29,490 nucleotides of DNA from an uncultured Deinococcales bacterium. Lineage in GTDB: Bacteria; Deinococcota; Deinococci; Deinococcales; JAAFIG01. Below are positions 12,234 through 28,247 of this stretch, piece by piece. The position numbers were made by a program, and so were the translations under genes. Location of the stretch: the NCBI GenBank assembly GCA_964244895.1, contig CAXTKV010000044.1, positions 1-29,490 of the forward strand, given 5' to 3'. Each line of letters opens with the position of its first letter. The first letter of the stretch is position 1. The notes under the pieces were generated by a model, which searched no databases, was not told the origin of the DNA, and saw only the letters and a list, made by a program, of their open reading frames with translations.

Positions 12234-12280
12234 TCTTCCAGGCTCCCGCTCGAGCGCGATTCATGCGTGCGTGATGGACA

Positions 12281-12310
12281 GGCGGTCGGGGTGATCCTGC
12301 CCCGACCGCC
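12281..12310 (+). terminator. Intra-operon GC-rich hairpin after the binding-protein gene (partial terminator or mRNA stabiliser)
   Basis: GGCGGTCGGGG-TGATCCTG-CCCCGACCGCC, weak T tail. Confidence 0.55.
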
Positions 12311-12363
12311 GCTGTTTCAAGCTCGAGCCGAACGAACCTCACGGCGGTATCGAAAAGGTTGTT

Positions 12364-12431
12364 CTCGAGCGGAATATCGTGCTGGACACGATCTTGAGAA
12401 TGCGTGTGGGACGGTACGCTTGAATCTCGAG
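12364..12431. repeat. Palindromic intergenic element, copy 7 (degenerate)
   Basis: CTCGAGCGGAATATCGTGCTGGACACG...TGCGTGTGGGACGGTAC...CTCGAG. Confidence 0.65.
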
Positions 12432-12499
12432 CGACCAAACACGAAACCAGAAATGACCAGGATGCCGATACGTTCCCCTCGAGCCAGAATTGGAGTGAC

Positions 12500-13438
12500 A
12501 TGCGACCCCTCTTGACCATCGCCGCGACACGACCGGGCGGCGGACGCGCCTCGAGCCGTTCGGGATTGTCCGACCGCTGGCTGGCCTGGCTGTTCTGCGG
12601 CCCGACGGTGCTGCTGCTGCTGGCCTTCAACATCTTCCCGCTGTTGTGGACGATCTACCTGTCCTACACGAACTACCGCGCCAACCGCCCCAGGTCAGCC
12701 GTCTCGGGCGTCGGGACGCTCAACTACGACAATTTGCTGGGCAACCCGGAAATCTGGGAGCGCCTTCAGGCCACCGCACATTTCTTGTTCTGGACAATCG
12801 CCTTGCAGCTCCTGATCGGCTTCGGGCTGGCTTGGCTGATCAACCAGAAGTTTCGCGGCCACGCCGTCATCACGACGTTAATCCTCTTGCCGATGATGCT
12901 CTCCCCGGCGGTGGTCGGCACGTTCTGGACGTACTTCTTCCAGCCGCAGTACGGCGTCTTCAACGCGGTCATCAACGCCATCGGTCACTTCGGGGATTTC
13001 ACCATGCTGGGCGATGTCAAGCTCGCGCCGTGGGCGATCGTGCTGGTGGACACCTGGATGTGGACGCCCTACGTGATGCTCTTGTTGCTGGCCGGGCTGC
13101 GCTCGATCCCCGAGTACATCTACGAGGCCGCCGAGGTGGATCGCGCCAGCGAGTGGACGAAATTCTGGCGCATCACCATCCCGATGGTCATGCCGTTCAT
13201 CGTGCTGGCGGTGCTCTTTCGGGTGATCGAGAATTTCAAGATGTTCGATCTGGTCAACCAGCTGACCAACGGCGGGCCGGGTTCGACCACGGAACTGGCC
13301 TCGATCACCCTCAAGCGCGAGGCCTTCGAGAAGTGGCGCACGGGCTACAGCAGCGCGTTCGCGATCATTCTGTTCGTCTCGATTTACGGGCTGGCGAACG
13401 TGCTGGTCAAGTTTCTGGAGCGGGTGAAAGAGCGATGA
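12500..13438 (+). CDS. Carbohydrate ABC transporter permease 1 (MalF/UgpA-like)
   Basis: Six hydrophobic segments; EAA loop YEAAEVDRASEW; LTNGGPG; RBS GGAG before ATG 12500 (alternative TTG at 12512). Confidence 0.93.
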   Translation: MRPLLTIAATRPGGGRASSRSGLSDRWLAWLFCGPTVLLLLAFNIFPLLWTIYLSYTNYRANRPRSAVSGVGTLNYDNLLGNPEIWERLQATAHFLFWTIALQLLIGFGLAWLINQKFRGHAVITTLILLPMMLSPAVVGTFWTYFFQPQYGVFNAVINAIGHFGDFTMLGDVKLAPWAIVLVDTWMWTPYVMLLLLAGLRSIPEYIYEAAEVDRASEWTKFWRITIPMVMPFIVLAVLFRVIENFKMFDLVNQLTNGGPGSTTELASITLKREAFEKWRTGYSSAFAIILFVSIYGLANVLVKFLERVKER

Positions 13439-13734
13439 CGCGATCAACAATGGACTTCTCGAGAACGACGATCTTGACGAGCTTCCATGCGAGGGCAACC
13501 ATAAAGGTTGCTACGAAACCAGGCTGTTGTAGGGGTAACCCTTGTGGTTACCCCTCCCGCGAATCGCGTTCGGTCGCCTTCACAGGAGGTCTATTCACCG
13601 CGGGCGTGCCCCCTCGAGCCTCTATTCGCGCTCGAGTCTCGAGAACACCGTCCAGTATGTGTTCTCGAAAATGCGTGTGGGACGGTGTTCTCGTGAAGAA
13701 CACGTTGAGGTACGAGAACGGGGATTGCCGATGA
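13435..13734 (+). CDS. Bridging mini-ORF (99 aa) spanning the repeat-containing gap between the two permeases
   Basis: ATG overlaps permease-1 stop (ATGA 13435-13438) and its TGA overlaps permease-2 start (ATGA 13731-13734); peptide is not protein-like, so translation is unproven. Confidence 0.35.
   Translation: MTRSTMDFSRTTILTSFHARATIKVATKPGCCRGNPCGYPSRESRSVAFTGGLFTAGVPPRASIRARVSRTPSSMCSRKCVWDGVLVKNTLRYENGDCR
13491..13556. repeat. GTAG-type REP doublet in inverted orientation
   Basis: GAGGGCAACCATAAAGGTTGCTAC (13491-13514) and GTAGGGGTAACCCTTGTGGTTACCCCTC (13529-13556). Confidence 0.75.
13640..13693. repeat. Palindromic intergenic element, copy 8
   Basis: CGAGAACACCGTCC...GGACGGTGTTCTCG, 14-bp perfect outer stem. 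Confidence 0.9.
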
Positions 13735-14702
13735 GCCTTCGCAATGCACCGACTCGCCCAGCGAACGTCCGAGAGCCGCTGCAACCCACGCCCCTCTCGA
13801 GGAACCTGGCGGGCGTCGTGGTCTACGCTTACGCCTTCATTACGCTGCTGCCGCTCGTCTGGATCGTGATCACGGGCTTCCGCACGCCGAACGACGCGAT
13901 CTCGTATCCGCCGAAGCTCATCACCGCGCCATCCTTGGTCGGGTACGTCAACTTGTTCACCACGCGCACGCGGCTGGCGCAAGAAGACCTGGATAAACTG
14001 CCGCCGCCCGCCAACTGGATTGAAGGCGTGGCGCGCCAGCAGCAGATGATCATCGCGGGGCCGTCCGGGTTTTTAAAGCGCTACACGAATTCCTTGATCG
14101 TGGGGTTCGGCTCGACTTTCCTGAGCGTCTTCCTGGGCGTGTTGGCCGCTTACGGCTTCTCGAGGTTCCGCGTGCCCGGCAAGGGTGATCTGCTGTTCTT
14201 CGTGCTGTCCACGCGCATGATGCCGCCCATCGCGGTGGCCATCCCGATCTTCTTGATGTACCGATCATTGGGTCTTTCGGACACGCACCTGGGCTTGATT
14301 TTGCTCTACACGGTCGTCAACCTGAGCCTGGCGGTGTGGTTACTCAAGGGCTTCATGGACGAGATCCCACAGGAATACGAGGAGGCCGCGATGATCGACG
14401 GCTACAGCCGCCTGGACGCCTTCCGGCGAATCGTGCTGCCGCAGGCGGCGACCGGCATCGCCGCGACCGCGATCTTCTGCCTGATCTTCTCATGGAACGA
14501 GTACGCGTTCTCGCTGTTGCTGACCAGCGGCAACGCCCAGACCGCGCCGCCGTTCATTCCGACGATCATCGGCGAGGGCGGCCTGGACTGGCCCGCGATG
14601 GCGGCGGGCACGACGCTGTTCCTGCTGCCGGTGCTGTTCTTCACCGTCCTGCTGCGGGATCACCTGCTGCGCGGCATCACCTTCGGAGCGATCCGCAAAT
14701 GA
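13731..14702 (+). CDS. Carbohydrate ABC transporter permease 2 (MalG/UgpE-like)
   Basis: AAYGFSRF, EAA loop YEEAAMIDGYSRL, FSWNEY, LLRGITFGAIRK. Confidence 0.93.
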   Translation: MSLRNAPTRPANVREPLQPTPLSRNLAGVVVYAYAFITLLPLVWIVITGFRTPNDAISYPPKLITAPSLVGYVNLFTTRTRLAQEDLDKLPPPANWIEGVARQQQMIIAGPSGFLKRYTNSLIVGFGSTFLSVFLGVLAAYGFSRFRVPGKGDLLFFVLSTRMMPPIAVAIPIFLMYRSLGLSDTHLGLILLYTVVNLSLAVWLLKGFMDEIPQEYEEAAMIDGYSRLDAFRRIVLPQAATGIAATAIFCLIFSWNEYAFSLLLTSGNAQTAPPFIPTIIGEGGLDWPAMAAGTTLFLLPVLFFTVLLRDHLLRGITFGAIRK

Positions 14703-14932
14703 CGCCGAGCGACCCGAACCAGATTCATGATGCTCTCGAGCGCGAGATCATCCGGCCCAAACCGCTTCACGCCTTCAGCCGCCGCATCTGGGAGCCGATC
14801 ACGGTCGGCGCGATGTTCCTGGGCTTCGTGATGCTGCTGCAACCATTTTTCCTGGTGCTGTTCACCCACGCCTTCAGCGTGATCCTCTTCGGCGTGATCG
14901 GCTTCACCGTCGCCAGCAAACTTCCGGAGTAA
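14699..14932 (+). CDS. Small two-helix membrane protein (77 aa) within the ABC operon
   Basis: ATGA overlap with permease 2; two hydrophobic stretches; ends 3 nt before the ATPase start. Confidence 0.75.
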   Translation: MTPSDPNQIHDALEREIIRPKPLHAFSRRIWEPITVGAMFLGFVMLLQPFFLVLFTHAFSVILFGVIGFTVASKLPE

Positions 14933-14935
14933 CCC

Positions 14936-16069
14936 ATGGCCGAGATTCGCATCGAACATTTGCACAAACGCTTCGGCGATTTTATCGCCGTCGAAGATTC
15001 CAGTTTGACGGTCAAGAACGGCGAGTTCTTCGTGCTTTTGGGGCCATCCGGCTGCGGCAAGACGACCACGCTTCGGATGATCGCTGGACTCGAGCTGCCG
15101 ACCTCGGGCACGATCCTGCTGGATGGTCAGGATGTGACGTTCAACCGCGCCCGCGAGCGCGACATCGCCTTCGTGTTTCAACTCTTCGCGCTCTACCCGC
15201 ACATGACGGTGCGGCAGAACATCCGTTTCCCGCTGGTCAACGAGCGCGTGCCCGCGCCGGAGATCGAGCGGCGCGTGATGGAAATTTCAAGGATGCTTCA
15301 GATCGATCACCTGCTGGGGCGTCGCGTCACGGGCTTATCGGGCGGCGACCGGCAGCGCGTGGCGCTCGGGCGAGCCATCGTGCGCCAGCCGAAGGCGTTC
15401 TTGATGGATGAACCGTTGGGCACGCTGGACGCGAGCTTCCGCGAGTTGATGTGCCTGGAGCTTCGCAAGCTTCACGACCGCCTGGGCGCGACCACCGTCT
15501 ACGTCACGCACGACCAGAGCGAGGCGATGGCGATGGCAGACACGATTGTCGTCATGAACCAGGGCCGGGTCTTGCAGGCCGACACGCCCGAACGCATTTA
15601 CGACTGTCCGAACTGCGTCTTCGTCGGGCGCTTCATCGGGGCACCGCCGATGGGTTTTCTCGAGGTTGCGGGGGCCGTCAAACCGGGCGACGAGCGCGTG
15701 CGCGTGGACGGCGTGAGCCTCAGCGTGCCGCGCCAGCTCGAGGGCGCCGAGCGCGTCCTGCTGGGCGTGCGGCCCGAACGCGTGATGGTGGTCGGCGACG
15801 GCGGCGTGCGCGGCGAGGTGCTGGCCGCCGAATACCTGGGCTCGCACCAGGTGCTGACCGTGCAGACCCGAGCGGGTACGGTTCGCGCGCGCGTCGGCAA
15901 GGATGCCCAGGCGAGGCTCGGCGAGACGGTCGGTCTCGAGTTCGATGCTTCGAACGTGATCCTCTACGGCGCGCAGACCGAACAGATGCTCCAGAGCGCC
16001 TTCACGGAGCGCTTCAAGGGTGCAGGGCAACCCTCGAGCGTTCCCAGGCAGGAGGTGGCCCGTGGCTGA
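14936..16069 (+). CDS. ABC transporter ATP-binding protein 1 (MalK-like)
   Basis: GPSGCGKT, LSGGDRQ, FLMDEP, VTHDQ, C-terminal TOBE-like region. Confidence 0.95.
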   Translation: MAEIRIEHLHKRFGDFIAVEDSSLTVKNGEFFVLLGPSGCGKTTTLRMIAGLELPTSGTILLDGQDVTFNRARERDIAFVFQLFALYPHMTVRQNIRFPLVNERVPAPEIERRVMEISRMLQIDHLLGRRVTGLSGGDRQRVALGRAIVRQPKAFLMDEPLGTLDASFRELMCLELRKLHDRLGATTVYVTHDQSEAMAMADTIVVMNQGRVLQADTPERIYDCPNCVFVGRFIGAPPMGFLEVAGAVKPGDERVRVDGVSLSVPRQLEGAERVLLGVRPERVMVVGDGGVRGEVLAAEYLGSHQVLTVQTRAGTVRARVGKDAQARLGETVGLEFDASNVILYGAQTEQMLQSAFTERFKGAGQPSSVPRQEVARG

Positions 16070-17102
16070 GGTTCGTCTCGAACAGCTCTTCAAATCGTTC
16101 GGCGATATTCAGGCCGTAGAAAATCTCGAGCTGACCATCGCAGACGGTGAATTCCTGGTGCTCTTGGGGCCGAGCGGCGCGGGCAAGACCACGACGCTGC
16201 GCCTCGTTGCAGGTCTCGAGACGCCAGACTCGGGCCGCGTCTTGCTGGACGGCGAGGACGCGACGGGCTGGCATCCGGCGGAGCGCGATGTCGCGTTCGT
16301 GTTTCAGCAGTTTTCCCTGTACCCGCACTACACCGTCTACGACAACCTGGCCTTTCCGCTTCGCGCCCCGAACCGCCGCACACCGGAACCCGAGATCGCC
16401 AAACGCGTCACCGAGGTCGCCGAACTCTTGCGGATCGAGGGCAAACTCAAGAACAAGTCCACCCGCCTGTCCGGTGGCGAGATGCAGCGCGTCGCCATCG
16501 GGCGGGCGCTGGTGCGCGAACCGCGCGTCTTCTTGATGGACGAACCGATGTCGTCGCTGGACGCGAAGCTGCGCGAGGAACTTCGGGCGGAACTCAAACG
16601 CATTCAGACGCGATTGGGCGCGACAATTCTGTACGTCACCCACGATCAGGTCGAGGCGACCACGCTGGCGGATCGTATCGGCATCCTCGAGCGCGGACGC
16701 TTGAAGCAGGTCGCGCCGCCGCGCACGATCTACGATGACCCGGATTCGCTCGGTGTAGCGAGGCGGCTCGGGTCGCCGCCGATCAATGTCCTCAAGACCG
16801 CCTGGTGCAACCCAAAAGAGGTTCCTGCCGGGGCGGACTGCCTGGGCATCCGCCCGGAGGATCTGGAACTCGAGATCGACCAACCAAGCGACCGCGATAT
16901 CGAAGCCAGCCCGACGGCCACGGTCGAACTGGTCGAACGGCTCGGGCCGCAACACCAGGTGGTCTTGCGAAACGCGCTCGGTGAGGTTCGGGTGCTCGTG
17001 CCGCCCGGCGTGCCGCTGGCTCGTGGGCGCGAGGTTCGGGTGCGCTTCCCGATCAGTAAGCGCCTGTTCTTTAATACCGCAGGGGAAAGGATACGCCCAT
17101 GA
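16062..17102 (+). CDS. ABC transporter ATP-binding protein 2 (MalK-like)
   Basis: RBS GGAGGT before GTG; GPSGAGKT, LSGGEMQ, FLMDEP, VTHDQ. Confidence 0.95.
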   Translation: MAEVRLEQLFKSFGDIQAVENLELTIADGEFLVLLGPSGAGKTTTLRLVAGLETPDSGRVLLDGEDATGWHPAERDVAFVFQQFSLYPHYTVYDNLAFPLRAPNRRTPEPEIAKRVTEVAELLRIEGKLKNKSTRLSGGEMQRVAIGRALVREPRVFLMDEPMSSLDAKLREELRAELKRIQTRLGATILYVTHDQVEATTLADRIGILERGRLKQVAPPRTIYDDPDSLGVARRLGSPPINVLKTAWCNPKEVPAGADCLGIRPEDLELEIDQPSDRDIEASPTATVELVERLGPQHQVVLRNALGEVRVLVPPGVPLARGREVRVRFPISKRLFFNTAGERIRP

Positions 17103-17782
17103 ACGGCTTTGAAATCATGACCGCCATCGACGCGGCGCACGCCGCCGTCCTGGAGCACAAAGAAGAGATCGCGTCCCTCGATCAGGCCATCGGTGACGGC
17201 GATCACGTGTTCAACCTCTTGCGCGGTCTCGAGGCCGTGCGCGAGCGACGGGCTGAAATTACCGTTCAGAACGCACCGGACGCCCTGAAGACCGTCGCCA
17301 AGCGGATGCTCGAGACGGTCGGCGGCAGCGCTGGGCCGCTGCTGGCATCCTTGGTGCTGGGCATGTCAAAAAGTGCGGGCGACGGCAGCAATGACGGTGC
17401 GCTCGATTTGCGCGACTTCGCCCGGATGTTCACCAGCGGCGTGGACGCGATGCGGGCGCGAGGCAAGGCCGGGCTGGGCGAAAAGACCATGCTGGACGTG
17501 CTGATTCCGGTGGCTGAAACCCTGAGCCAACAGGCTGAACAGCTCGAGAACGACACCGACCTGAGCCGAGAGCACGGCCTGGCGCGGGCGCTCGAGGCCG
17601 TGAAAGCCCGCGCCGAGAGCGGCATGAAGGGTACGAAAGACATGATCGCCACCAAGGGCCGCGCATCGTTCCTGGGTGAACGGGCGCGGGGCGTGATCGA
17701 CCCCGGCGCGCGCTCCAGCCAGGTCATGATCGAGGCGATCTGTGACATGGTGATGCGACACATGCGGGCCGGAGCGCTATGA
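17099..17782 (+). CDS. dhaL: Dihydroxyacetone kinase-family ADP-binding subunit (DAK2), copy 1
   Basis: LDQAIGDGDH, GEKTMLD, KGRASFLGER, DPGARS. Confidence 0.9.
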   Translation: MNGFEIMTAIDAAHAAVLEHKEEIASLDQAIGDGDHVFNLLRGLEAVRERRAEITVQNAPDALKTVAKRMLETVGGSAGPLLASLVLGMSKSAGDGSNDGALDLRDFARMFTSGVDAMRARGKAGLGEKTMLDVLIPVAETLSQQAEQLENDTDLSREHGLARALEAVKARAESGMKGTKDMIATKGRASFLGERARGVIDPGARSSQVMIEAICDMVMRHMRAGAL

Positions 17783-18768
17783 AAAAATTTCTCAACCGAG
17801 TCGAGACCTTTCTCGAGGACAGCCTGCACGGTTTCGCCGCCGCGCACGCCGATCTGGTCGAGGCGCACTTCGCGCCCACCTTCGTCCAGCGCCGGGTCTT
17901 GCAGCCCGGCAAGGTGGCGCTGATTTCCGGTGGCGGCTCCGGCCACGAACCGTTGCACGCGGGCTTCGTCGGGCGCGGGATGCTGGATGCCGCCTGCCCA
18001 GGTCACGTTTTTACCTCGCCCACGCCGGATCAGATGCTCAAGGCGGGCGAGACGGTGGACACGGGCGCCGGGGTCTTGTTCATCGTCAAGAACTATTCGG
18101 GAGATCTGATGAACTTCGAGATGGCCTCTGAACTGGCGGATTTTCAGAACGCCAGCCTGATCACCAACGACGACGTGGCCGTCGAGAATTCCAGTTTCAC
18201 CACTGGCAGGCGCGGCGTGGCGGGCACGGTGATCGTCGAGAAGGTCGTCGGCAGCCTGGCCGAGACGGGCGCGAACCTGGCGACCTGCCGCGCTTTGGGC
18301 GAGCGCGTCAACGCGCGAACGCGCTCGATGGGCGTGGCGCTCTCCAGTTGCACCGTGCCCGCCGCCGGACGACCGACGTTCGAGTTGGCCGACGACGAGA
18401 TCGAGGTCGGTGTGGGCATCCACGGCGAGGCGGGCCGACGGCGCGACAAGATCCAACCCGCCCGCGCGATTGTCACCGAGCTGATCACTGCCATCGTCGA
18501 CGACCTCGAGCCCGAACGGGACGCGGAGGTGCTGCTTCTGGTCAATGGCCTCGGCGGTACGCCGCTTTCGGAGCTGTATCTGCTTTACGGTGAAGCCAGG
18601 CGGGCGCTCGAGCCGCGCGGCCTGCGGGTGGCGCGGTCGCTGGTCGGGAATTACACGACCGCGCTCGAGATGGCGGGCGCGTCATTGACGGTGTGCCTGC
18701 TCGACGACGAGATCGCGCACCACTGGGATCAGCCCGTGCACACGGCGGCCTTGCGCTGGGGCGTTTGA
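17779..18768 (+). CDS. dhaK: Dihydroxyacetone kinase-family substrate-binding subunit (DAK1)
   Basis: SGGGSGHEP, KNYSGD, GRRGVAGT, GIHGEAG, NGLGGTP. Confidence 0.93.
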   Translation: MKKFLNRVETFLEDSLHGFAAAHADLVEAHFAPTFVQRRVLQPGKVALISGGGSGHEPLHAGFVGRGMLDAACPGHVFTSPTPDQMLKAGETVDTGAGVLFIVKNYSGDLMNFEMASELADFQNASLITNDDVAVENSSFTTGRRGVAGTVIVEKVVGSLAETGANLATCRALGERVNARTRSMGVALSSCTVPAAGRPTFELADDEIEVGVGIHGEAGRRRDKIQPARAIVTELITAIVDDLEPERDAEVLLLVNGLGGTPLSELYLLYGEARRALEPRGLRVARSLVGNYTTALEMAGASLTVCLLDDEIAHHWDQPVHTAALRWGV

Positions 18769-18856
18769 GAATGGTGTTCGCTCGAGCCGCGCGAATCGGT
18801 CTCGTGGGTCTGCTCGCGCCATGTGGACGGGTACGATGGTGGCGGAACCGATCTCG

Positions 18857-18979
18857 ATGAAGACTGACGAAGGTGCAAAACGTGAGAACACCGTCTGGTA
18901 CACGGAATTAAATTTGCGTGCTGGACGGTGTTCTCGAGCAGTGATTCCCAATCTGACCGATACCCACGAGGAACGATGA
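18857..18979 (+). CDS. Bridging mini-ORF (40 aa) across the repeat, coupled to dhaL copy 2
   Basis: MKTDEGAKRENTVWYTELNLRAGRCSRAVIPNLTDTHEER; stop overlaps dhaL start (ATGA 18976-18979); start overlaps the stop of a preceding mini-ORF 18765-18860, which itself overlaps the dhaK stop (TTGA). Confidence 0.33.
   Translation: MKTDEGAKRENTVWYTELNLRAGRCSRAVIPNLTDTHEER
18884..18938. repeat. Palindromic intergenic element, copy 9
   Basis: GAGAACACCGTCTGGTACACG...TGCGTGCTGGACGGTGTTCTCGAG. Confidence 0.9.
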
Positions 18980-19608
18980 CCAACGAAACCATCCGACAAT
19001 GGATTCTGGAGTGCGCCCGGCTGATGCGAGACCGCCAGGCGTACCTGACGCAACTCGACGCGGCCATCGGTGACGCCGACCACGGCTCGAACATGACGCG
19101 AGGCTTCGACGCCGCCGAAGCCAGGCTGGCCGAGATGCCCTCGGACACGACGCCGGGCGCGCTGCTGGTGATGGTCGGGCAAACCCTCGTCTCGAGCATC
19201 GGCGGGGCGAGCGGGCCGATCTGGGGTTCCGTCTTCCGGCGGGCGGGCAAGACCCTGGGCGAAGGGGCGCAGATCACCCAGGCGCTGTTCGTCGAGGCGC
19301 TCGACAAGGGTCTGGTGGCCGTGATGGAACTCGGGGCCGCAGAACCCGGCGATAAGACGATGGTGGACGCGCTCTCGCCCGCCGTGGATGCCCTGAAAAG
19401 CGCGTTGCAACAGGGCGCGCCGCTCGAGCAGGCCGTCACGGACGCGCGCGAGGCCGCGAACCGTGGGGCGCTCGAGACCGTGCCGATGGTCGCCCGCAAG
19501 GGCCGCGCCTCGTACCTGGGCGAGCGCTCGGTCGGTCACCAGGATCCCGGCGCGACCTCGACGGCGCTGATCGTGGCGGCGCTCGAGTTGGCCGTCAAGG
19601 GCGGCTGA
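18976..19608 (+). CDS. dhaL: Dihydroxyacetone kinase-family ADP-binding subunit (DAK2), copy 2
   Basis: RBS GAGGA; LDAAIGDADH, GDKTMVD, KGRASYLGER, DPGATS. Confidence 0.92.
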   Translation: MTNETIRQWILECARLMRDRQAYLTQLDAAIGDADHGSNMTRGFDAAEARLAEMPSDTTPGALLVMVGQTLVSSIGGASGPIWGSVFRRAGKTLGEGAQITQALFVEALDKGLVAVMELGAAEPGDKTMVDALSPAVDALKSALQQGAPLEQAVTDAREAANRGALETVPMVARKGRASYLGERSVGHQDPGATSTALIVAALELAVKGG

Positions 19609-19611
19609 GGC

Positions 19612-20370
19612 GTGAGCATCCAGTCGGTCGAACGGGCGGTCAGCATCTTGCGCGTCCTCGCCGCCAGCTCCAGACGCCTCAGCCTGGCCGAGGTCGCCGC
19701 GCCGCTCGGGCTGGCCAAAACGACCGTCTTCGGATTGCTGAAAACCCTGCACGAGCAGGGCTTCGTGGAACAGGACGCGGAAAGCGGCAAGTACCAGGTC
19801 GGCCACGCGCTCCTGGAACTCGGCTCGCGCTACCTGGATGCCAACGAACTGCGGCGGCGATCCCTCGTCTGGTCGGATCTGCTCGCGCAGCGCAGCGGCG
19901 AATCCGTGCGCGTCGGTGCGCTGCGCGCGGGCAGCGCGCTGATCGTGCATCACGTCTTCAGGCCGGACACGACCATGCAGGTTCTCGAGGTCGGCACGAA
20001 CCGCCCGTTGCACGCCACCGCCATCGGTAAGGCTTTACTGGCGCACCATCCGGGCGTGTTGCAGGATCTGCGCGACGACCAGCTGGCCCGATTGACGCAG
20101 CACACGCTGACGCGGCGCACGGAAATTCAAGCTCACCTGCAACTGGTGCTCGAGCAGGGCTACGCCACCGAGCGCGAGGAGGCCGTGCTGGCCGAGGCGG
20201 GTCTGGCCGCGCCGATCTTCGATCACCAGGGCGCGGTGGTCGGCGCGATCGGCATCAACGGCTCCTTGGACACGCTCTACCGCAAACGCGAGCCCCGCCG
20301 CGACCTGATCGATCTGGTCTGCGAGGCCGCCAGAAACATCTCGCGCGAACTGGTCAGCGGGCGCGTGTGA
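19612..20370 (+). CDS. IclR-family transcriptional regulator (GylR-like)
   Basis: IQSVERAVSIL N-terminal HTH, LHATAIGKALLA, LAAPIFD. Confidence 0.93.
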   Translation: MSIQSVERAVSILRVLAASSRRLSLAEVAAPLGLAKTTVFGLLKTLHEQGFVEQDAESGKYQVGHALLELGSRYLDANELRRRSLVWSDLLAQRSGESVRVGALRAGSALIVHHVFRPDTTMQVLEVGTNRPLHATAIGKALLAHHPGVLQDLRDDQLARLTQHTLTRRTEIQAHLQLVLEQGYATEREEAVLAEAGLAAPIFDHQGAVVGAIGINGSLDTLYRKREPRRDLIDLVCEAARNISRELVSGRV

Positions 20371-20586
20371 TGGACGTTGTGCGAACGCGAAGCTCGTCCG
20401 AGCCATCGTGATGCTGGTGTAGGCGCGAATTTCATGTTCGCCCTCGAGTGGTCACGATTCCTCGAGATGGAGCGTACAGCACAGGAGTTTCTCGAGATCG
20501 CGCCAGACTTTCGCGGGCGCTTCAGCGCCTTCGAGCCCGTTCGATCCCGGCTGTAAAGCCCGCCGTCTCGAGCGTCGCATCGATCC

Positions 20587-20634
20587 AAAGACCGTCCAGG
20601 ACGACATCATTTATTTGCGTCCGGAACGATCTTT
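20587..20634. repeat. Palindromic intergenic element, copy 10
   Basis: AAAGACCGTCCAGGACG...CGTCCGGAACGATCTTT. Confidence 0.75.
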
Positions 20635-20839
20635 ACTTATCGGATGAGCGGCTTGCGACGCGTGCGCCGCGACAGAAACAGTGCCATCACCCGGCGGCCA
20701 CGACTCGATCAAACCGTTTCGCACTCTTCAGGATCGTCTCGAACGGCGCACCGTCCCGCCACAGGTGGCGCACCCCTACACCTGTCCGCGACTCCCCTCG
20801 AGGCTGGGCGAACCTCCAGCCCGACAGCGGTTTTGCGCC

Positions 20840-21835
20840 CTAGCTCGCCGCAGCGGGCACGCGTTCGGGCATGCGGAACTCGATGTCCTCGGGCTCGCCT
20901 TCCTCGATCACGCGAAGGTTCGGATTGCGCGCCCGGAAGAACGCCACGATCTCCTGCACCAGATCGTCCGGTGTGCTGGCGGCGCTGGTCACGCCGACCG
21001 ATTCGATGCCCTCGAGCCACGCGTCCTGGATGTCGCGCACGCTCTCGATCCGGTGCGCGCGCGGCGTGATCTCTTCAGCCAGTTCCACCAGGCGCATGCC
21101 GTTGGAGGAATAGTTGCTCGAGACGACCAGAAACAAGTCAACCTTCGGTGCGATCTGTTTGACCGCCGCCTGACGGTTCTTGGTGGCGTAGCACAGGTCT
21201 GAACGCCCCGGCACGGTCAGCAGCGGGAAGCGCTGGCGCAGCACGTCGACTGTCTTGTCGGTGTCGTCCACCGACAGGGTCGTCTGGGTCAGCACGATGA
21301 TCTTTTCCGGGTCGGGAACCTCGACGGTGTGCGGGTCGTGCATGGCGGGATCATTCTTGCGGTTGCCCAGCACGTTGACCAGGATGGTTCGGTCTGGCGC
21401 TTCCCCGAGCGTGCCAATGACCTCCTGGTGCGTGCTGGAATCGCCGATCAAGAGAATCCAGTAGCCCGACGCGGCGTAGCGTTTGGCCTCCGTGTGAACT
21501 TTCGTGACCAGCGGACAGGTCGCGTCCACCGTCGCCAGACCGCGCCTGGCCGCCTCGGTGCGCACGGTCGGCGAGATGCCGTGCGCGCTGAACACGACCG
21601 TCTGGCCGGTTCCAGTCAAACCGTCCAGTTCCGCCATGTCCTCGATGAATTGCACGCCGTGATCGTTCTCCAGGCGCTTGACGACCGTGTCGTTGTGGAC
21701 GATGGCGTGGTACGCGATCAGATCGCCCTCGTTGCGCGTCCGGTTTTCCGTGGCCGCGATTTTCACGGCGTCGATGGCCATCACCACGCCCGCGCAGAAA
21801 CCTCTGGGTTGGGCGAGATACACGCGTTCGATCAT
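20840..21835 (-). CDS. ispH: 4-hydroxy-3-methylbut-2-enyl diphosphate reductase
   Basis: [44 protein letters not shown]; three Fe-S cysteines. Confidence 0.97.
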
Positions 21836-21841
21836 GCGCCG

Positions 21842-21847
21842 ATTCTA
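21842..21847 (-). promoter_or_regulatory. -10 box implying a leaderless ispH transcript
   Basis: TAGAAT 6 nt before the ATG at 21835. Confidence 0.65.
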
Positions 21848-21903
21848 CCCGCTCCCGCGCGGGACAATTCGGTTTGAAGGATCAATCGCGCTCGGGGCGA
21901 TAG

Positions 21904-21936
21904 CTCGAAAAATGCGTCCAGGACGGTACCCTCGAG
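21904..21936. repeat. Half or degenerate copy of the palindromic element
   Basis: CTCGAAAAATGCGTCCAGGACGGTACCCTCGAG. Confidence 0.5.
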
Positions 21937-22026
21937 AATGCTCGCTTTTGGTTCGCGCGTTCGGGTTTTCGTCGTCAGCGCGCCCCGAGTCCTCAGGATG
22001 CCACGCCCGAGCCGGGATCGACTGAA

Positions 22027-24405
22027 TTACAATCGGAAGCGCCGCAGCGCGAGTTCCACGATCAAAGCCAGCGCGCCCAGCACGGCCAGCCACGGCGCGA
22101 GCGGCGAGCGGCTGGCCGCCCGAGCGGGAACGTAGCCGTCCAGGTTCTCGAGGACGCGTCCGCCGGAAGCCTCGGCGATGGCGCGAAGCTGATCGAGCCC
22201 GCCGTCGGTGGACAGCTCGCGGTGATCGGGTTCGAGCCGCGTTCTGGCCAGCACCTCGCCCGCGCGCGTCAAGATCAGGTTGCCGCTCGCGCCTGCGGGC
22301 AGGGCGGCCTCGTAGCGTCCGGGTGCGGTCTGGGTCATCTCCAGGCGGCTCGCTCCGACGCGCAACTCGAAGCGCTCGCCGTTGACGTACTGATTGGCCG
22401 TAACCGCGTCCACGACGGCGTTTCGACCATCCGGGCTGAGGCTCAGGTTGTACGGTGCGGGCGCAGTCTCGAGCCAGCGCGTGACCGTTCCAAGCAACGC
22501 CGCGAGATCGGGCCAGCGCGTGAAATCGTCCGCGCGGTTCAGGTCAGCCGTCAGCGCGGCGGTGCGGCCCAAACCCTTGCGGGTCACGGCCAGCACGGGT
22601 TCGCCGTCCAGACCGATCAATATCGGCTCGCCCGTCTCGCGCAGGGTCGTGGCGATATAAGAGGTCAACGTCGGCGTCCTGCTCGAGACCGCGCCCGAGA
22701 GCGGGTGACGGATCAGTCTGGGGCGGACGGGTTCGGTGCGCACCAGCGCGCGCGTCGCCGTCAGGGCTTCGGTCGTGAAGATGCGCGGCAGCGTGTCCGC
22801 ATCCAGCGCCGCGTAGTAGCGCCCGCCACCCGCGCCCGCGATGGCCTTCAGGCGCGGCCCGTCCGCGTCGCTGCCGACCCCGATGGCGGAAGTCGTGATC
22901 CCGGCGGCCTTGGCGGTCTGCGCCATGCCCGCGAAATCCGGGGCTTTGGCGTTCGATCCGAACGGCGTCTGATCGTCCGCCAGTTGCCCGTCGGTCAGCA
23001 AGATGATGTGCTTGATGGCGGCTTTCGTGTCCCGCAGCGCCTGGATCGCCTCGCGGTAGGCGGGCTCGAGGATCGTGCCACCGTTCGATTCGATGCCCGC
23101 CACGGCGCGCACCATCTGCAATTTGTTGCTTTCCGTCGCTCGGGTCGGTTTGAAGATCCACTGCGCGGAATCCGAGAACGTCACCAAGCCCAACTGGTCG
23201 CGGTCGTTGGCCAGTTCGATCACGTTGCTGACGCCCTCTATGGCCAGACCCAATTTGCTGCCGCCGCTGACGCCGCCCGCGCCCTGCATCGAGAGCGAAC
23301 GGTCCACGATCATCACCATCGCCACCAACGGCACGTCGACGCGCGTGCGCAAATCGGACGCGACCGGCAGCGTGCCATCCACCGGTGTGCGCGACCAGCC
23401 GCCCATGCCGAAGGATTTCGGGCCGCCTGTCAGCATCAGCCCGCCCCCTTCCTGGACGTAACTTTCCAGGAGCTGCAACTGCCCCAGGCTGAAATCCGTG
23501 GCGGCGGCCCGCACCACCACGGCTTGCGGGCTGAAGGGTTCAGTCACGTCTTTGGGCGCGCCCTCGCGCACCTTGAAGCCCTGGGCGCGCAGCAATCGCG
23601 CGGCGGCGGGATCGCCGATCACCAGCACGCTGGCGGCGGCGCTGGATCGAAGGGACAGCGCGCGGCTGTCGTCGAGGGTCGGCTGATCGTAGTCCACGGT
23701 GACGCGCACCTCGAGTTCGATGTTCTCGCTGGGCGACCCGGTCGGCACGACGAATTCGACCGGCAAACTCGAACGTCCTGCGGGCAGTTCCACGGTGCGC
23801 GGTGGCAACGGACGAGAGTTCAGGCTGGGCAGCAGCCGCACCCGAGCCGCGCGCGTGGTTTCGATGACTGCCTGGGCGCGCACCGTGCCGCCGGGTTGCA
23901 CGCTGGTCGGCGCGATCAATTCCGCCACGCGAGCGTTCTCGCGTGGTTTCAGGACCAGCACGTCCACGGCCACGTCGGGCAACGCCGCCAGCGCGTCACC
24001 CGTGATCGCGTTGCCGTCAGAGACGAGCAGAATTCGGCTGGGCCGGTACGCGCCCGCCACCTGAAGGGCGTTCCTGAGGTCGGTTCGATCCGTCTCGAGC
24101 GCGGCGCGATCCGTGCCTGCCTCGCCGGTGCGACCCGCGAACTCGAGGCGGCGCGCGGCGCTCAGCGTGGACAATCCCGCCGGAGCCGCGCTGGCCGAAT
24201 CGGACACGTCCGTCAGGATCACCAAGCCCGGTTGGGCGCGTTCCAGGTTCGGGCTGGCTGCGGCCAACCCGAGCAGCACCAGCGCCAGCACCCGCCAGCG
24301 CGCGATGGCGCTCGAGACGACGCGACCCCGGCTGAGAACGAGCGCGAGCACCAGCCCGATCACGGTCAGTCCCACGATCCACGGTTGCTCGAACGTCAGG
24401 TTCAC
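22027..24405 (-). CDS. Membrane-anchored VWA-domain protein with a glutamine amidotransferase-like central domain
   Basis: N- and C-terminal TM helices; MIDAS motifs DVSDS and DRSLS, GGT, LLTDG; YVQEGGGLMLTGGPKSFG; RBS GGAGG. Confidence 0.88.
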   Translation of the reverse strand: MNLTFEQPWIVGLTVIGLVLALVLSRGRVVSSAIARWRVLALVLLGLAAASPNLERAQPGLVILTDVSDSASAAPAGLSTLSAARRLEFAGRTGEAGTDRAALETDRTDLRNALQVAGAYRPSRILLVSDGNAITGDALAALPDVAVDVLVLKPRENARVAELIAPTSVQPGGTVRAQAVIETTRAARVRLLPSLNSRPLPPRTVELPAGRSSLPVEFVVPTGSPSENIELEVRVTVDYDQPTLDDSRALSLRSSAAASVLVIGDPAAARLLRAQGFKVREGAPKDVTEPFSPQAVVVRAAATDFSLGQLQLLESYVQEGGGLMLTGGPKSFGMGGWSRTPVDGTLPVASDLRTRVDVPLVAMVMIVDRSLSMQGAGGVSGGSKLGLAIEGVSNVIELANDRDQLGLVTFSDSAQWIFKPTRATESNKLQMVRAVAGIESNGGTILEPAYREAIQALRDTKAAIKHIILLTDGQLADDQTPFGSNAKAPDFAGMAQTAKAAGITTSAIGVGSDADGPRLKAIAGAGGGRYYAALDADTLPRIFTTEALTATRALVRTEPVRPRLIRHPLSGAVSSRTPTLTSYIATTLRETGEPILIGLDGEPVLAVTRKGLGRTAALTADLNRADDFTRWPDLAALLGTVTRWLETAPAPYNLSLSPDGRNAVVDAVTANQYVNGERFELRVGASRLEMTQTAPGRYEAALPAGASGNLILTRAGEVLARTRLEPDHRELSTDGGLDQLRAIAEASGGRVLENLDGYVPARAASRSPLAPWLAVLGALALIVELALRRFRL

Positions 24406-24638
24406 GCGACCCTCCGGTCAACGCATCGTAGATCAAGGGAGGCTTCCCGAGCGGTTCGGGGCTCACGTTCGGTATCGCTCGCCCGAGATGGAGCGGCGCT
24501 TTCAACCCGCGACCCCGAGTCGGTTCGCGTTGCGTCCCACGAAAGAGAGTCTGGAGGAGCAGGGTGTTTCTCGAGAACACCGTCCTGCACACATATTGTG
24601 AATAGCGTGCGGGACGGTGTTCCCTGAATCCTGCTCAC
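24402..24638 (-). CDS. Bridging mini-ORF (78 aa) between the two VWA genes
   Basis: GTG at 24638 overlaps the upstream stop (GTGA) and its TGA overlaps the downstream GTG at 24405 (GTGA); reads through the repeat without a stop. Confidence 0.35.
   Translation of the reverse strand: MSRIQGTPSRTLFTICVQDGVLEKHPAPPDSLSWDATRTDSGSRVESAAPSRASDTEREPRTAREASLDLRCVDRRVA
24570..24623. repeat. Palindromic intergenic element, copy 11
   Basis: CTCGAGAACACCGTCCTGCAC...GTGCGGGACGGTGTTCC. Confidence 0.9.
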
Positions 24639-26329
24639 GCCGTCCGCCGCTCGAAGACGCCACCGAAACGCCCGCCGCCGCGCAAGTACGATTCGGCCAG
24701 CAGCGCCAAGAGCGCCAAGAGCAGCAACACGGCCCGCCACGGGGATTCTGCGGGTGGGGCACTGGACACGGTATCGGGTGCGTCCCTGCCGAGGCGCTGC
24801 ACACCGCTCGCGCCGACCGCAAAACGCGTCTGACCGCTCGAGGCGAGGTTGGCGGCGAAGGTGCGTCCGCCGACCGCGTACACGCCGGGCAGCAGGGCGC
24901 GCGTCAGTCCGGGCGCATCCCGACCGTCGAAGCTGACCTGGGCATCCGGCAGCCTCGAGCCGAGCGGCAGGTTGGGCACGCTGATGAACTCCGACATCGC
25001 GTTGAAGATTGCGACCGGAAAGGCCGGGCTGGATCGCAGGTCGGAATCCAACGGGTGCGCCGCAATGTAAATGGCGCGCACGCCGGGGCCATCGCCGCGC
25101 AAAATCAGGGCTTTCTGACCGGCTCGAGCCAGCACCGACCAGCTTCCGCCCGGAATTTCGGGCGGCGGCACGTCGGACACGTGGGCGCGAACGCCTTCCA
25201 GGTTGGCGAAACGCAACCAGCTCGACGCCGCGTCCCAGCTGGAGACGGTTTCCAGCGGCGCGGGTTTCTGTCCGGCCTTCGGGTTCGGTGAAAGCGGCGC
25301 AAAGATCAGGTACTGCCCCGCCGGGAGCGCTCTGGGCACGCTGCCGACCAGGATGATCGCGTCGAAACCCGCGCTGGTGGCGGGCGGTACGGTCTGCGTG
25401 GCGGCGCGCACGAATGGCACGCTGGCAACGGCGCGCAGCACGTCGTCCTGCGGTGGGCTGACCAGCACCCGTCCCGAACCGACCACGGCGACGGCGGTGT
25501 CGTCGAGCGCCAGCGCGTCGTCGCCCGTCAGTTTCGCGCGGTACTCGCCGGGCAGCAGCGAGATTTTCGGCGTCCAGACGGCGCGACCACCGCCGGGAAC
25601 GCTCAACTTCTGGCTGGCGATCTCGCGCCCGTCGCGCTCGAGGCGCACGCTGACCGTTTGCGGCCCCGTGCCGTTCGATTCGATGGCGGCGAACAGCTGA
25701 GAACCGCGCACCTGAAAGGCGGTCAACCCGACGTTCCTGCCGTTGCCGCGCACTATGTGCAGCACGCCGCGCGAATCGCTGGGCGCGTCCTGATCGGTGT
25801 AGATGTGCAACTCCGCCCTGGGCGCGAGCGATCTGGCCAGACTGATGGCCGCCTCGAGGTCCGCGCTCGAGTCGCCGGGTGAGAGGTTCTCGAGGGCGCG
25901 CCTGAATTCGGATGGGTCGCTCGAGTTGGCCGCGACCGTGGCGGCCAGCCCCGCGCGCACGACCGTGGCGCGCCTCGCGCCAGCCACCAGCGCGATCGCC
26001 CCCTGCCGCGCGACCTCGAAACGGGACGGTTTGAGGTCCGTGGCTCCCATGCTCCCGCCCGCGTCGATCACCACCGCCACCTCGCGCCCGAGCCCGTCCA
26101 ATCGCGGTCCCGCCGCCCCCAAGCTGGCGGCGCTGACCGTCAAAAGTTGCAGGAACAGCAACCAGGTCGGTGAAAAACGCGCGCGCCGGGAGGGCGCTTC
26201 CTCGCCGGGCCACAACCACAACGCGCTGACGGTGCGCGTGCGTCTGGCGCGCCGGACGAAGTGCAGCGCGATCACGACCGGAACCAGCAGCAGTCCCAGC
26301 AAGAACAACGGTGCGGCGAAGGCGAGCAT
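24635..26329 (-). CDS. BatA N-terminal / VWA-like membrane protein
   Basis: FAAPLFLLGLLLVPVVIALHF...VSALWLW...LLFLQLL BatA-type N-terminus; VVIDAGGSM, SRFE, YTD; C-terminal TM helix. Confidence 0.85.
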   Translation of the reverse strand: MLAFAAPLFLLGLLLVPVVIALHFVRRARRTRTVSALWLWPGEEAPSRRARFSPTWLLFLQLLTVSAASLGAAGPRLDGLGREVAVVIDAGGSMGATDLKPSRFEVARQGAIALVAGARRATVVRAGLAATVAANSSDPSEFRRALENLSPGDSSADLEAAISLARSLAPRAELHIYTDQDAPSDSRGVLHIVRGNGRNVGLTAFQVRGSQLFAAIESNGTGPQTVSVRLERDGREIASQKLSVPGGGRAVWTPKISLLPGEYRAKLTGDDALALDDTAVAVVGSGRVLVSPPQDDVLRAVASVPFVRAATQTVPPATSAGFDAIILVGSVPRALPAGQYLIFAPLSPNPKAGQKPAPLETVSSWDAASSWLRFANLEGVRAHVSDVPPPEIPGGSWSVLARAGQKALILRGDGPGVRAIYIAAHPLDSDLRSSPAFPVAIFNAMSEFISVPNLPLGSRLPDAQVSFDGRDAPGLTRALLPGVYAVGGRTFAANLASSGQTRFAVGASGVQRLGRDAPDTVSSAPPAESPWRAVLLLLALLALLAESYLRGGGRFGGVFERRTA

Positions 26330-26423
26330 CTTTGCCCATCATCGCGCGAAAATGCGCTCCTGTCATGACAGAAGCGTGTCACGCCGTGAAGGTGGTCAAA
26401 AATGGAATCTCCATTTCAAACAA

Positions 26424-26477
26424 AGACCGTCCAGCAGACACTTTCTTGACGCTCGAGAATTGCGTGCTGGACGGTCT
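26424..26477. repeat. Palindromic intergenic element, copy 12
   Basis: AGACCGTCCAGCA...TGCTGGACGGTCT, 13-bp perfect arms; lies between divergent genes. Confidence 0.88.
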
Positions 26478-26628
26478 CGTCTGAAGTTCTCGAAGTTTTA
26501 GAGCGCGCCTGACGCTGCTTAACTGACCGCTCGAGACTGGCTCGTCGAGACTTCATTTGCGTGTCGGTTTCGGCCCCGTTTCGCTCTGGTGCGCGATATC
26601 ATTCTCTGGCGTAGGCTCGAGGACACCT

Positions 26629-28125
26629 GTGGACATCGCGCTCGTCACTGAAGGTACGTACCCATTCCACTTGGGCGGCGTGGCCGTCTGGTGCGATCAA
26701 CTGATGCGCGGCCTGCCTCAGCACGCCTTCCAGGTGATCGCCATCGGCGGGGATGGATCGGAATCCGTGATCTGGGATGCGCCACCGAACCTGAGGGACG
26801 CGCAGAGCGTGTTTTTGTGGGGTCAGAAACTGGTGCGCAAACCCGCTACGGACGCGCTCGAGCGGCAATTTGCGGAATCGCACGCGATCTTCGCGCACGC
26901 CCTGATGCGACCGAGCAGCGGCGTCAAAGATTTCCTGGAGGCGCTGCGCGGGTTGCACGCCTACGCCCTGGAAGCGGACCTCGAGACCGCCATGACCTCG
27001 AACGCGTCGCTGGAACGGTTGAACACCGCCTGGCACGAGGCGCAGCGCGAGCGCCGCCGCGCCACGATCCGACCGCGCGATGCGCACGTCGAGATCAACC
27101 TGGCCGAGGTGCTGGCGGCCTCCAGGCTGATCGCGCACCTGCTGCGCCCGCTGTCCGCGCCTCCACCGCAGGTCAAGATCGTTCACGCCGTCTCGAACGG
27201 GCTGGCGGCCTTGCCCGCTTTCGCGGCCAAGTGGGCCTACGGCACGCCGTTCGTGCTGACCGAACACGGCGTGTACTTGCGCGAACGCTACCTGTCCTAC
27301 ACCGCCGCCACGTACCCGTATGCGGTGCGGGCGCTGGCGCTCAACTTTTACCGCCTGCTCTCGAGCGCCGCGTACCGGATGGCGGATCGGATCGTGCCGG
27401 GGTCGTTGTACAACCAGCGCTGGGAGCTGCGCGCCGGAACCGACCCATCGAAGGTTCGTACCGTCTACAACGGGATCGATCCGAGCGAATTTTATGAAAA
27501 CCGCACCGAGCCCGAGGAACCGACCATTTCCTGGTTGGGCCGGATCGATCCTTTGAAGGATCTCGAGACGCTTCTTCGCGCCTTCGCGTTGGTGCGCATG
27601 GAGATGCCGCGAGCCCGCTTGCGCCTGTTCGGTTCGGTACCCGCCGGGAACGAAGTGTACTTCGCGCGCTGCGAGGCGCTCCTCGAGGAACTGCGTCTCG
27701 AGGGTTCCGCGCGTTTTGAAGGTCGGGTCGAATTCTCTTTGGAGGCGTACCACGCGGGTCAGGTGTTCGTCATGACCAGCATCTCGGAGGGCTTCCCGTA
27801 CTCGCTGATCGAGGCCATGGCCTGCGGGTGCGCGGTCGTGGCGACCGACGTGGGCGGCGTCGGTGAAGCCATCCTCGACGCCGGGCTGATCGTGCCGCCC
27901 AGGGATCACGCGGCGGTCGCGCAAGCCTGCCTGACATTGCTGCGCGATGAAAACCTGCGGCGCAAGTTGGGCGCTGCCGGACGCACCCGCGTTCAGCAGC
28001 ATTTCACGCTCGAGAAATGCCTGGCGGCTTACCGCGAAATCTACGATGAGGCCGTCAGGGTCGAACCCTGGACGCTCGAGGTCGGCGTGGGTCGGGTGCG
28101 CCCGAGCCCCGCGCGCGTCGGATGA
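26629..28125 (+). CDS. pelF: GT4 glycosyltransferase, PelF-like (DUF3492 + Glycos_transf_1)
   Basis: TEGTYPFHLGGVAVW, LTEHGVYLRER, GRIDPLKD, SISEGFPYSLIEAM, TDVGGV; RBS GAGGA before GTG. Confidence 0.85.
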   Translation: MDIALVTEGTYPFHLGGVAVWCDQLMRGLPQHAFQVIAIGGDGSESVIWDAPPNLRDAQSVFLWGQKLVRKPATDALERQFAESHAIFAHALMRPSSGVKDFLEALRGLHAYALEADLETAMTSNASLERLNTAWHEAQRERRRATIRPRDAHVEINLAEVLAASRLIAHLLRPLSAPPPQVKIVHAVSNGLAALPAFAAKWAYGTPFVLTEHGVYLRERYLSYTAATYPYAVRALALNFYRLLSSAAYRMADRIVPGSLYNQRWELRAGTDPSKVRTVYNGIDPSEFYENRTEPEEPTISWLGRIDPLKDLETLLRAFALVRMEMPRARLRLFGSVPAGNEVYFARCEALLEELRLEGSARFEGRVEFSLEAYHAGQVFVMTSISEGFPYSLIEAMACGCAVVATDVGGVGEAILDAGLIVPPRDHAAVAQACLTLLRDENLRRKLGAAGRTRVQQHFTLEKCLAAYREIYDEAVRVEPWTLEVGVGRVRPSPARVG

Positions 28126-28247
28126 AGCCCGTTGCCCGAAATGGTGCGGCTGACGGTCGCCTGAATCCTCCAAAGAATCAGAAAAACACCGTCCAGAACG
28201 GTGTTTCCCTGTGCTGTCCCGGACGGTGTTTCGCGGTGGCGACGTGA
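28122..28247 (+). CDS. Bridging mini-ORF (41 aa) between pelF and the next gene
   Basis: MKPVARNGAADGRLNPPKNQKNTVQNGVSLCCPGRCFAVAT; ATGA overlap with the pelF stop and GTGA overlap with the next start at 28244. Confidence 0.35.
   Translation: MKPVARNGAADGRLNPPKNQKNTVQNGVSLCCPGRCFAVAT
28184..28231. repeat. Palindromic intergenic element, copy 13
   Basis: AAACACCGTCC...GGACGGTGTTT with an extra internal arm ACGGTGTTT. Confidence 0.82.

Follow-up and report, generated by a model that had tools for sequence, protein, structure and literature searches.

Spacer reading frames coupled at both ends to neighbouring genes as probable ribosome relays in the operons of a Deinococcales bacterium

How can two genes of an operon remain translationally coupled when DNA comes to lie between them? 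This question is raised by 29,490 nt of contig CAXTKV010000044.1 (assembly GCA_964244895.1) from an uncultured Deinococcales bacterium, whose genome is labelled G000; this whole stretch is called the window below. An earlier note on this DNA had pointed to four intra-operon junctions that carry a palindromic element, a short hairpin repeat, and whose spacers are entirely covered by mini open reading frames (ORFs). These mini-ORFs begin in a 4-nt overlap with the upstream stop and end in a 4-nt overlap with the downstream start, and the note proposed that they relay ribosomes across the spacer. Checked against the sequence, the five mini-ORFs are open, in frame and bounded at both ends by the expected tetramers: 13435..13734 (plus strand; 99 aa; ATGA/ATGA), 18765..18860 (plus strand; 31 aa, started by TTG; TTGA/ATGA) followed by 18857..18979 (plus strand; 40 aa; ATGA/ATGA), 24402..24638 (minus strand; 78 aa; GTGA/GTGA) and 28122..28247 (plus strand; 41 aa; ATGA/GTGA). 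The direct gene overlaps that the note had listed at 1977, 14699, 17099 and 17779 are likewise all of the RTGA type (ATGA or GTGA).

Our results suggest that these mini-ORFs are probably ribosome relays, whose frame would have been kept by selection after DNA, often hairpin repeats, was inserted into junctions that are direct overlaps in relatives. On the best reading of the data, selection keeps translational coupling after junctions expand. The excess of such ORFs, their origin from direct overlaps and selection on the frame all found support; dependence on the palindromic element, and the chain starting with TTGA, did not.

Bridged gaps across the genome

Genes were called with a self-trained script, which yielded 4,514 genes in G000, including 360 pairs that overlap by 4 nt. 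We considered a gap as bridged when the frame that starts with the last four bases of the upstream gene remained open up to the TGA of the downstream RTGA. The main count comprised co-directional gaps of 60–400 nt whose downstream gene starts with RTGA, and a length-stratified count covered 40–500 nt; gaps that contained N, or that lay beside a gene truncated at a contig end, were excluded. Bridges were frequent when the upstream gene ended in ATGA (34/63) or GTGA (63/150), relative to the control ends CTGA (30/244), TTGA (10/94) and TAA/TAG (30/285). Phase counts, which do not depend on gap length, were skewed for ATGA (44/7/12) and GTGA (82/32/36) but flat for CTGA (87/79/78). In the stratified count, 102 of the 229 gaps with ATG or GTG at the upstream stop were bridged, against 85 of the 694 gaps without (odds ratio 5.2; P = 6 × 10−22), and the excess was present in each of the six length bins. 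It held for starts backed by a homologue (33/70 vs 21/189) and also when element-bearing gaps were counted by themselves (64/130 vs 39/362). Convergent gene ends presented no excess of open restart frames (39/137 vs 322/827). The earlier note had made its proposal depend on an excess over matched controls, and these comparisons bear it out. A relative, G006, also presented more bridges than its controls (29/96 vs 32/341; odds ratio 4.3; 2.8 of 5.1 Mb).

Bridged gaps also differed in their upstream tails. Scoring with the anti-Shine-Dalgarno octamer, we found a Shine-Dalgarno-like site before the RTG in 37 of the 102 bridged gaps (36%) vs 18 of the 127 unbridged ones (14%). Two-ORF chains showed no clear excess (ATGA 5/72, GTGA 8/157, TTGA 5/109 and CTGA 8/269). 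The chain in the window lies between dhaK (17779..18768, plus strand; family match), whose stop lies in TTGA, and dhaL (18976..19608, plus strand; family match), on whose start the 40-aa ORF stops after spanning the hairpin. The earlier note had counted this chain among the relays; its TTGA class is at background, and the sole close relative with the same pair and spacer is unbridged. The TTG-started ORF at 18765 is probably due to chance, and dhaK-dhaL is the weak case among the window junctions.

Junctions in relatives and the role of the repeat

We compared the bridged junctions with their orthologues. Both orthologues of 38 of the 102 bridged pairs were found in the G006 sample, 32 of them adjacent, and in 16 of these 32 the two genes overlap by 4 nt. 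The same overlap was observed for 46/79 of the pairs that overlap directly in G000, for 2/18 of the unbridged pairs with RTGA at both ends and for 9/131 of the pairs without an upstream RTGA. Junctions behind mraY and nuoD are among the bridged pairs with directly overlapping orthologues. The reverse case was found as well: six of the 79 pairs that overlap in G000 are bridged in G006. In the window, the first bridge joins two sugar ABC permease genes, one MalF/UgpA-like (12404..13438, plus strand; frame open from 12404, ATG at 12500 probably the true start, stop in ATGA) and one MalG/UgpE-like (13731..14702, plus strand; family match), and this malF-malG pair presents a direct ATGA overlap in 3/3 relatives. 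The idea, already in the earlier note, that bridged junctions stem from pairs overlapping directly in relatives thus agrees with both the genome-wide and the local comparison.

The fourth bridge lies behind a gene for a PelF-like GT4 glycosyltransferase (26629..28125, plus strand; caller's start, frame open from 26557; stop in ATGA). It leads to a conserved membrane-protein-like gene that is truncated by the contig end (28244..29490, plus strand; homologue alignment). Our caller placed the start of this gene at 28211; 28244, the start given by the earlier note, is favoured because two relatives align from residue 1 there. Among nine relatives' pelF loci, taken as the best from 33 matching genomes, six present a direct overlap and three a relayed junction: a 262-nt single bridge, a 242-nt three-ORF chain and a 16-nt bridge from TGATG to ATGA. 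The three-ORF chain (locus L175) contains the junction in two additional copies of 23 nt, both of which end in ATGA, and it lands exactly on the downstream start. Generality beyond the family of G000 rests on two pelF loci, L176 and L181.

The third bridge joins a BatA/VWA-domain gene (24635..26329, minus strand; family match; stop in GTGA) to a large VWA-domain gene with a GTG start (22027..24405, minus strand; family match). We collected 11 relatives' batA-vwa loci, the best of 18 genomes; one has no second gene, leaving ten. Three of these are direct overlaps, and all seven with spacers (55, 127, 217, 280, 295, 361 and 364 nt) are bridged from RTGA to RTGA. These unrelated spacers contain other repeats. 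The five long ones have a G+C content of 44–48%; their two remaining frames jointly contain 6–13 stops, and an open frame was obtained in 0.1–1.8% of shuffles. Their shared 5′ motif stands in frames 1, 0, 2, 1 and 2; therefore, compensated indels altered the peptide but preserved the frame. The five relatives belong to one genus and are not mutually independent. In a second family, the vwa gene was found behind batA in 0 of 20 short stretches, one of which ends after 116 nt. The batA-vwa bridges in L170 and L171 differ in length by 72 nt, in frame, and much of this difference is due to a GTAG-ended repeat similar to one inside the first bridge of the window.

The earlier note had also described the bridge peptides as not protein-like, and this was confirmed. 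The five window peptides have no family match in NCBIfam or Pfam. The 102 bridge peptides of the genome score negative as coding sequence (median −0.45 vs +0.47 for genes), similarly to non-start controls, and gave 0 matches by tblastn in 2.8 Mb of G006. Similarity was detected in 52 of 5,151 pairs of bridge peptides and probably reflects the shared repeat. Coding-like codon use and conserved amino acids, by which conserved small proteins are recognised, were not found in the bridges. Together with the batA-vwa series, these sequence data support the view that selection would act on the reading frame and not on the peptide.

The repeat is an imperfect palindrome of ~55 bp with a variable A/T-rich centre. 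It is present in all four window spacers (RNA fold z of −5.4, −6.7, −6.2 and −2.4), where repeat search and RNA folding place copies at 13637..13693, 18880..18939 and 24568..24625 and a degenerate copy at 28184..28232; an Rfam search gave no match. We identified 1,953 merged loci in the G000 genome (E < 0.01), of which 41 lie inside called genes. A 14-mer from the repeat arm has 964 exact matches in G000 and at most three in any of 40 relatives. Short repeats of the repetitive extragenic palindrome (REP) and REPIN types are abundant intergenic palindromes with a GTAG-type end and a cognate Y1 transposase (RAYT/TnpA-REP). The repeat of G000 resembles REP, REPIN and BIME elements (reviewed in PMC3184786) in that it is short, abundant, hairpin-forming, almost wholly intergenic and lineage-specific, and it looks REP-like. 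Its consensus has no GTAG end, and a Y1 transposase (PF01797) was not found in the assembly, which is 91% complete. Inside the first bridge (13491..13556) there is another short repeat, GTAG-ended and present as a degenerate inverted pair; we take this one to be a REP, and GTAGGGG occurs 330 times in the genome.

The earlier note had tied the bridges to this element, a claim that our counts do not support. When the upstream gene ends in ATGA or GTGA, 64/130 element-bearing and 33/83 element-free gaps are bridged (P = 0.20); a looser arm detector gave a weak difference (85/176 vs 17/53; P = 0.04). Within bridges, arm-to-RTGA distances vary over 0–256 nt and 5–240 nt, the first arm falls in the three frames 26, 25 and 30 times, and 17 of the 102 bridges have no repeat arm at all. 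G006 contains one exact arm match, yet it presents the same bridging excess. Since repeat-free gaps and a relative nearly free of the repeat are also bridged, the bridge is not encoded by the repeat. Folding energy per base differed little, at −0.39 in bridged spacers vs −0.35 and −0.36 in other gaps (at most 150 gaps folded per class). The hairpin is predicted to be a passenger.

Ribosome relay and other explanations

If the mini-ORFs act as relays, a ribosome finishing the upstream gene would restart at the RTG inside RTGA, with help from a Shine-Dalgarno site in the tail of that gene. Having read the spacer through any hairpin, it would terminate at the TGA overlapping the following start, and there it would re-initiate or open the start region; the bridge peptide would be a by-product. 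An insertion of 229 or 292 nt would uncouple partner subunits unless the old RTG restart delivers ribosomes to the new RTGA. Uncoupling would likewise follow from insertions or indels that bring in a stop codon or change the phase, and these would be purged unless compensated. It is possible that the relay boosts or proportions expression rather than being the only route, because downstream Shine-Dalgarno-like sites are as frequent as at unbridged genes (47% in both).

Several observations weigh against the relay. The gene calls rest on our own script. Downstream genes keep their Shine-Dalgarno-like sites and therefore could initiate alone. More than half of the gaps with RTGA at both ends (127/229) are not single-bridged. 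Chance would account for ~28 of the 102 bridges, and the genome count therefore proves no individual case. The relatives are not independent of each other, and the ancestral state was inferred without a tree. Finally, of the 38 junctions that have a gap here but whose orthologue is a direct overlap, 22 are not strict bridges; ten of these have no upstream ATGA or GTGA, and several of the 22 look like start miscalls or overlaps of 1 or 8 nt.

The alternative that survives best is that these frames are translated and selected as ribosome cover of the spacer RNA, protecting it against Rho-type termination or decay, and not for hand-over. We consider this unlikely. It would fit with the presence of Rho in 18/18 family relatives, with the Shine-Dalgarno-like sites retained by downstream genes and with the finding that, relative to controls, more restart frames close in the vicinity of the next start and not just upon it (ATGA 57/108 and GTGA 94/266 vs CTGA 65/489). 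However, the stops pile up exactly at the 4-nt overlap (36/108 for ATGA and 66/266 for GTGA), a precision that cover does not need, and this sharp peak argues for hand-over. In addition, rho was not found, either with a hidden Markov model or by tblastn with a relative's Rho, in the 91% complete assembly of G000, where the effect is strongest. Because of that incompleteness, its absence is not proof of loss; the neighbours of rho in G006 are scattered in G000. If real, the loss of rho may be linked to the spread of the ~1,950 intergenic hairpins.

It is also conceivable, although very improbable, that bridges are a mutational by-product, the RTGA junction being duplicated by insertion or slippage and the ORF resulting from this without selection. 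A few bridges are indeed tandem copies of the junction: those on contigs C104, C66 and C100 are arrays of a short unit with repetitive peptides, apparently produced by junction slippage, and L175 carries its 23-nt repeats. The flanks 5′ of the two RTGAs are also slightly more alike than in shuffled pairs (0.37 vs 0.32; P = 0.0005), but this weak likeness fits a shared Shine-Dalgarno bias. Duplication fixes neither the phase nor the absence of stops over 100–370 nt, and the compensated frame changes in five relatives require selection; phase and stop depletion largely refute this explanation. The same tetramer stands at both ends of 60 of the 102 bridges, with ~55 expected from the margins, and exact runs beside RTGA do not exceed 4 nt; target-site duplication was rejected as the general cause.

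We give hardly any credence to the view that bridges are ordinary small protein genes that were missed by the caller and invaded by repeats. Real small genes coupled on one side do exist (14699-14932, see below), and a few of the 102 peptides are more protein-like (C39 and C106). For most cases this view is refuted by the negative coding scores and the lack of matches in G006 given above, by orthologous junctions without a gene and by homologous DNA read in different frames. The least credible explanation, chance at high G+C content or a start-calling artefact, can draw on a background bridging of ~12%, on repeat arms without stops and on a caller that sometimes begins genes inside the repeat, but it is refuted for the bridge class, as the controls share composition, element and caller, the excess holds for homologue-supported starts and the start miscalls that we observed hide bridges and do not create them.

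Comparable arrangements have been described in other systems. The closest is the mycobacterial interspersed repetitive unit (MIRU), which the reviews PMC12548453 and PMC3184786 describe as a repeat of 40–100 bp in 40–50 copies with its own ORF and tetranucleotide direct repeats, proposed to insert between co-transcribed genes with little effect on expression. In both cases repeat DNA lies between genes, an ORF overlaps its neighbours by 4 nt and relatives that lack the insert present a direct junction (here 16/32 pairs, malF-malG in 3/3). The MIRU carries its own ORF, whereas the ORFs found here are locus-specific composites with the repeat in any frame, and in relatives the same role falls to other repeats or to unique DNA. 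The bridges are not MIRUs, because the repeat does not encode the ORF. In mycobacteria, small ORFs that end in RTGA on the next start were reported to be in excess (23/220 vs 32/1000; Shell et al. 2015, PMC4633059), and there too the coupled architecture is conserved and the peptide is not. Those ORFs start at the 5′ ends of leaderless transcripts and have one coupled side; in contrast, the bridges found here lie inside operons, have coupling at both ends and take the place of a direct overlap.

Integron attC and attI1 sites harbor short ORFs (ORF-11, ORF-17 and ORF-18) that cross a hairpin and are described as restoring downstream translation by termination-reinitiation (PMC8876359). The likeness lies in a short ORF over a hairpin whose peptide sequence matters little, but those ORFs are confined to integron recombination sites, whereas the present ones are found at housekeeping operon junctions genome-wide. 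No integron features were seen at bridged junctions, although no search was aimed at them. Termination-reinitiation itself works at stop/start overlaps of 4, 1 or 8 nt and takes a usable start codon, frequently together with a Shine-Dalgarno site within the upstream ORF. The reporter experiments of Huber et al. (2023, PMC10666635) indicate that coupling is nearly abolished at gaps of about 20–38 nt and that the last 15 nt of the upstream gene suffice. Each bridge end presents the same 4-nt overlap as the 360 direct cases of G000, and the excess was found only with ATG or GTG at the upstream stop. Pairs more than 20 nt apart are treated as independently translated in that study, whereas pairs 40–370 nt apart would here stay coupled through two hand-overs. 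We found no genome-wide account of doubly coupled spacer ORFs in a literature search that took in few subscription papers and no supplements.

Neighbouring features and significance

By our gene calls, ten co-directional junctions of the window carry the element: three are single bridges (counting 28122 with its downstream start at 28244), one is the TTGA chain and six are unbridged. One unrelayed junction (12230-12500) follows a solute-binding protein gene that ends in GTGA; the restart frame closes after 14 codons, and its stop precedes a G+C hairpin and a repeat copy. This arrangement would fit a gene whose product is needed in excess. At 14699-14932, a 77-aa small ORF resembling two helices is coupled to malG by ATGA; it has a positive coding score and no family match, and probably encodes a genuine small membrane protein belonging to this ABC operon. 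Farther downstream (17099-19608), dhaK stands between two dhaL genes within the sugar ABC operon, and in two of the three closest relatives dhaK is followed by another gene. Of the 41 intragenic copies of the repeat, 22 are more than 150 nt from either gene end; some may be in-frame insertions into proteins and others miscalls. In-frame absorption of the repeat into gene ends, considered as a common alternative route, proved to be rare (2 and 4 of the 41 copies). Finally, CTCGAG occurs 21,883 times in G000 (4.3 per kb) vs 568 times for GAGCTC, and it is frequent in the spacers of relatives too.

On a broader and more tentative view, relay ORFs could form a general and largely unannotated layer of operons, in which DNA between coupled genes is kept only if it can be read without interruption from the upstream stop to the downstream start. 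Each lineage would build its bridges from whichever repeat is spreading in it, and dozens of random peptides of 15–120 aa would be produced at rates typical of operons and could feed the birth of new genes. In this bacterium, loss of Rho may have let hairpins flood the intergenic space, with coupling as the main filter. We regard this wider picture as possible but doubtful.

The comparisons presented here provide evidence of purifying selection on translational coupling itself, obtained from DNA whose peptide is not conserved. The batA-vwa series, which ranges from direct overlaps to bridges of 55–364 nt, is well suited to telling ribosome hand-over from RNA unfolding as the mechanism of coupling. 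If the relay is real, long intergenic gaps need not mean that genes are uncoupled, and the annotation of G000 would miss ~70 translated spacers (102 seen, ~28 by chance). The spread of repeats into operons would then be filtered by reading frame.

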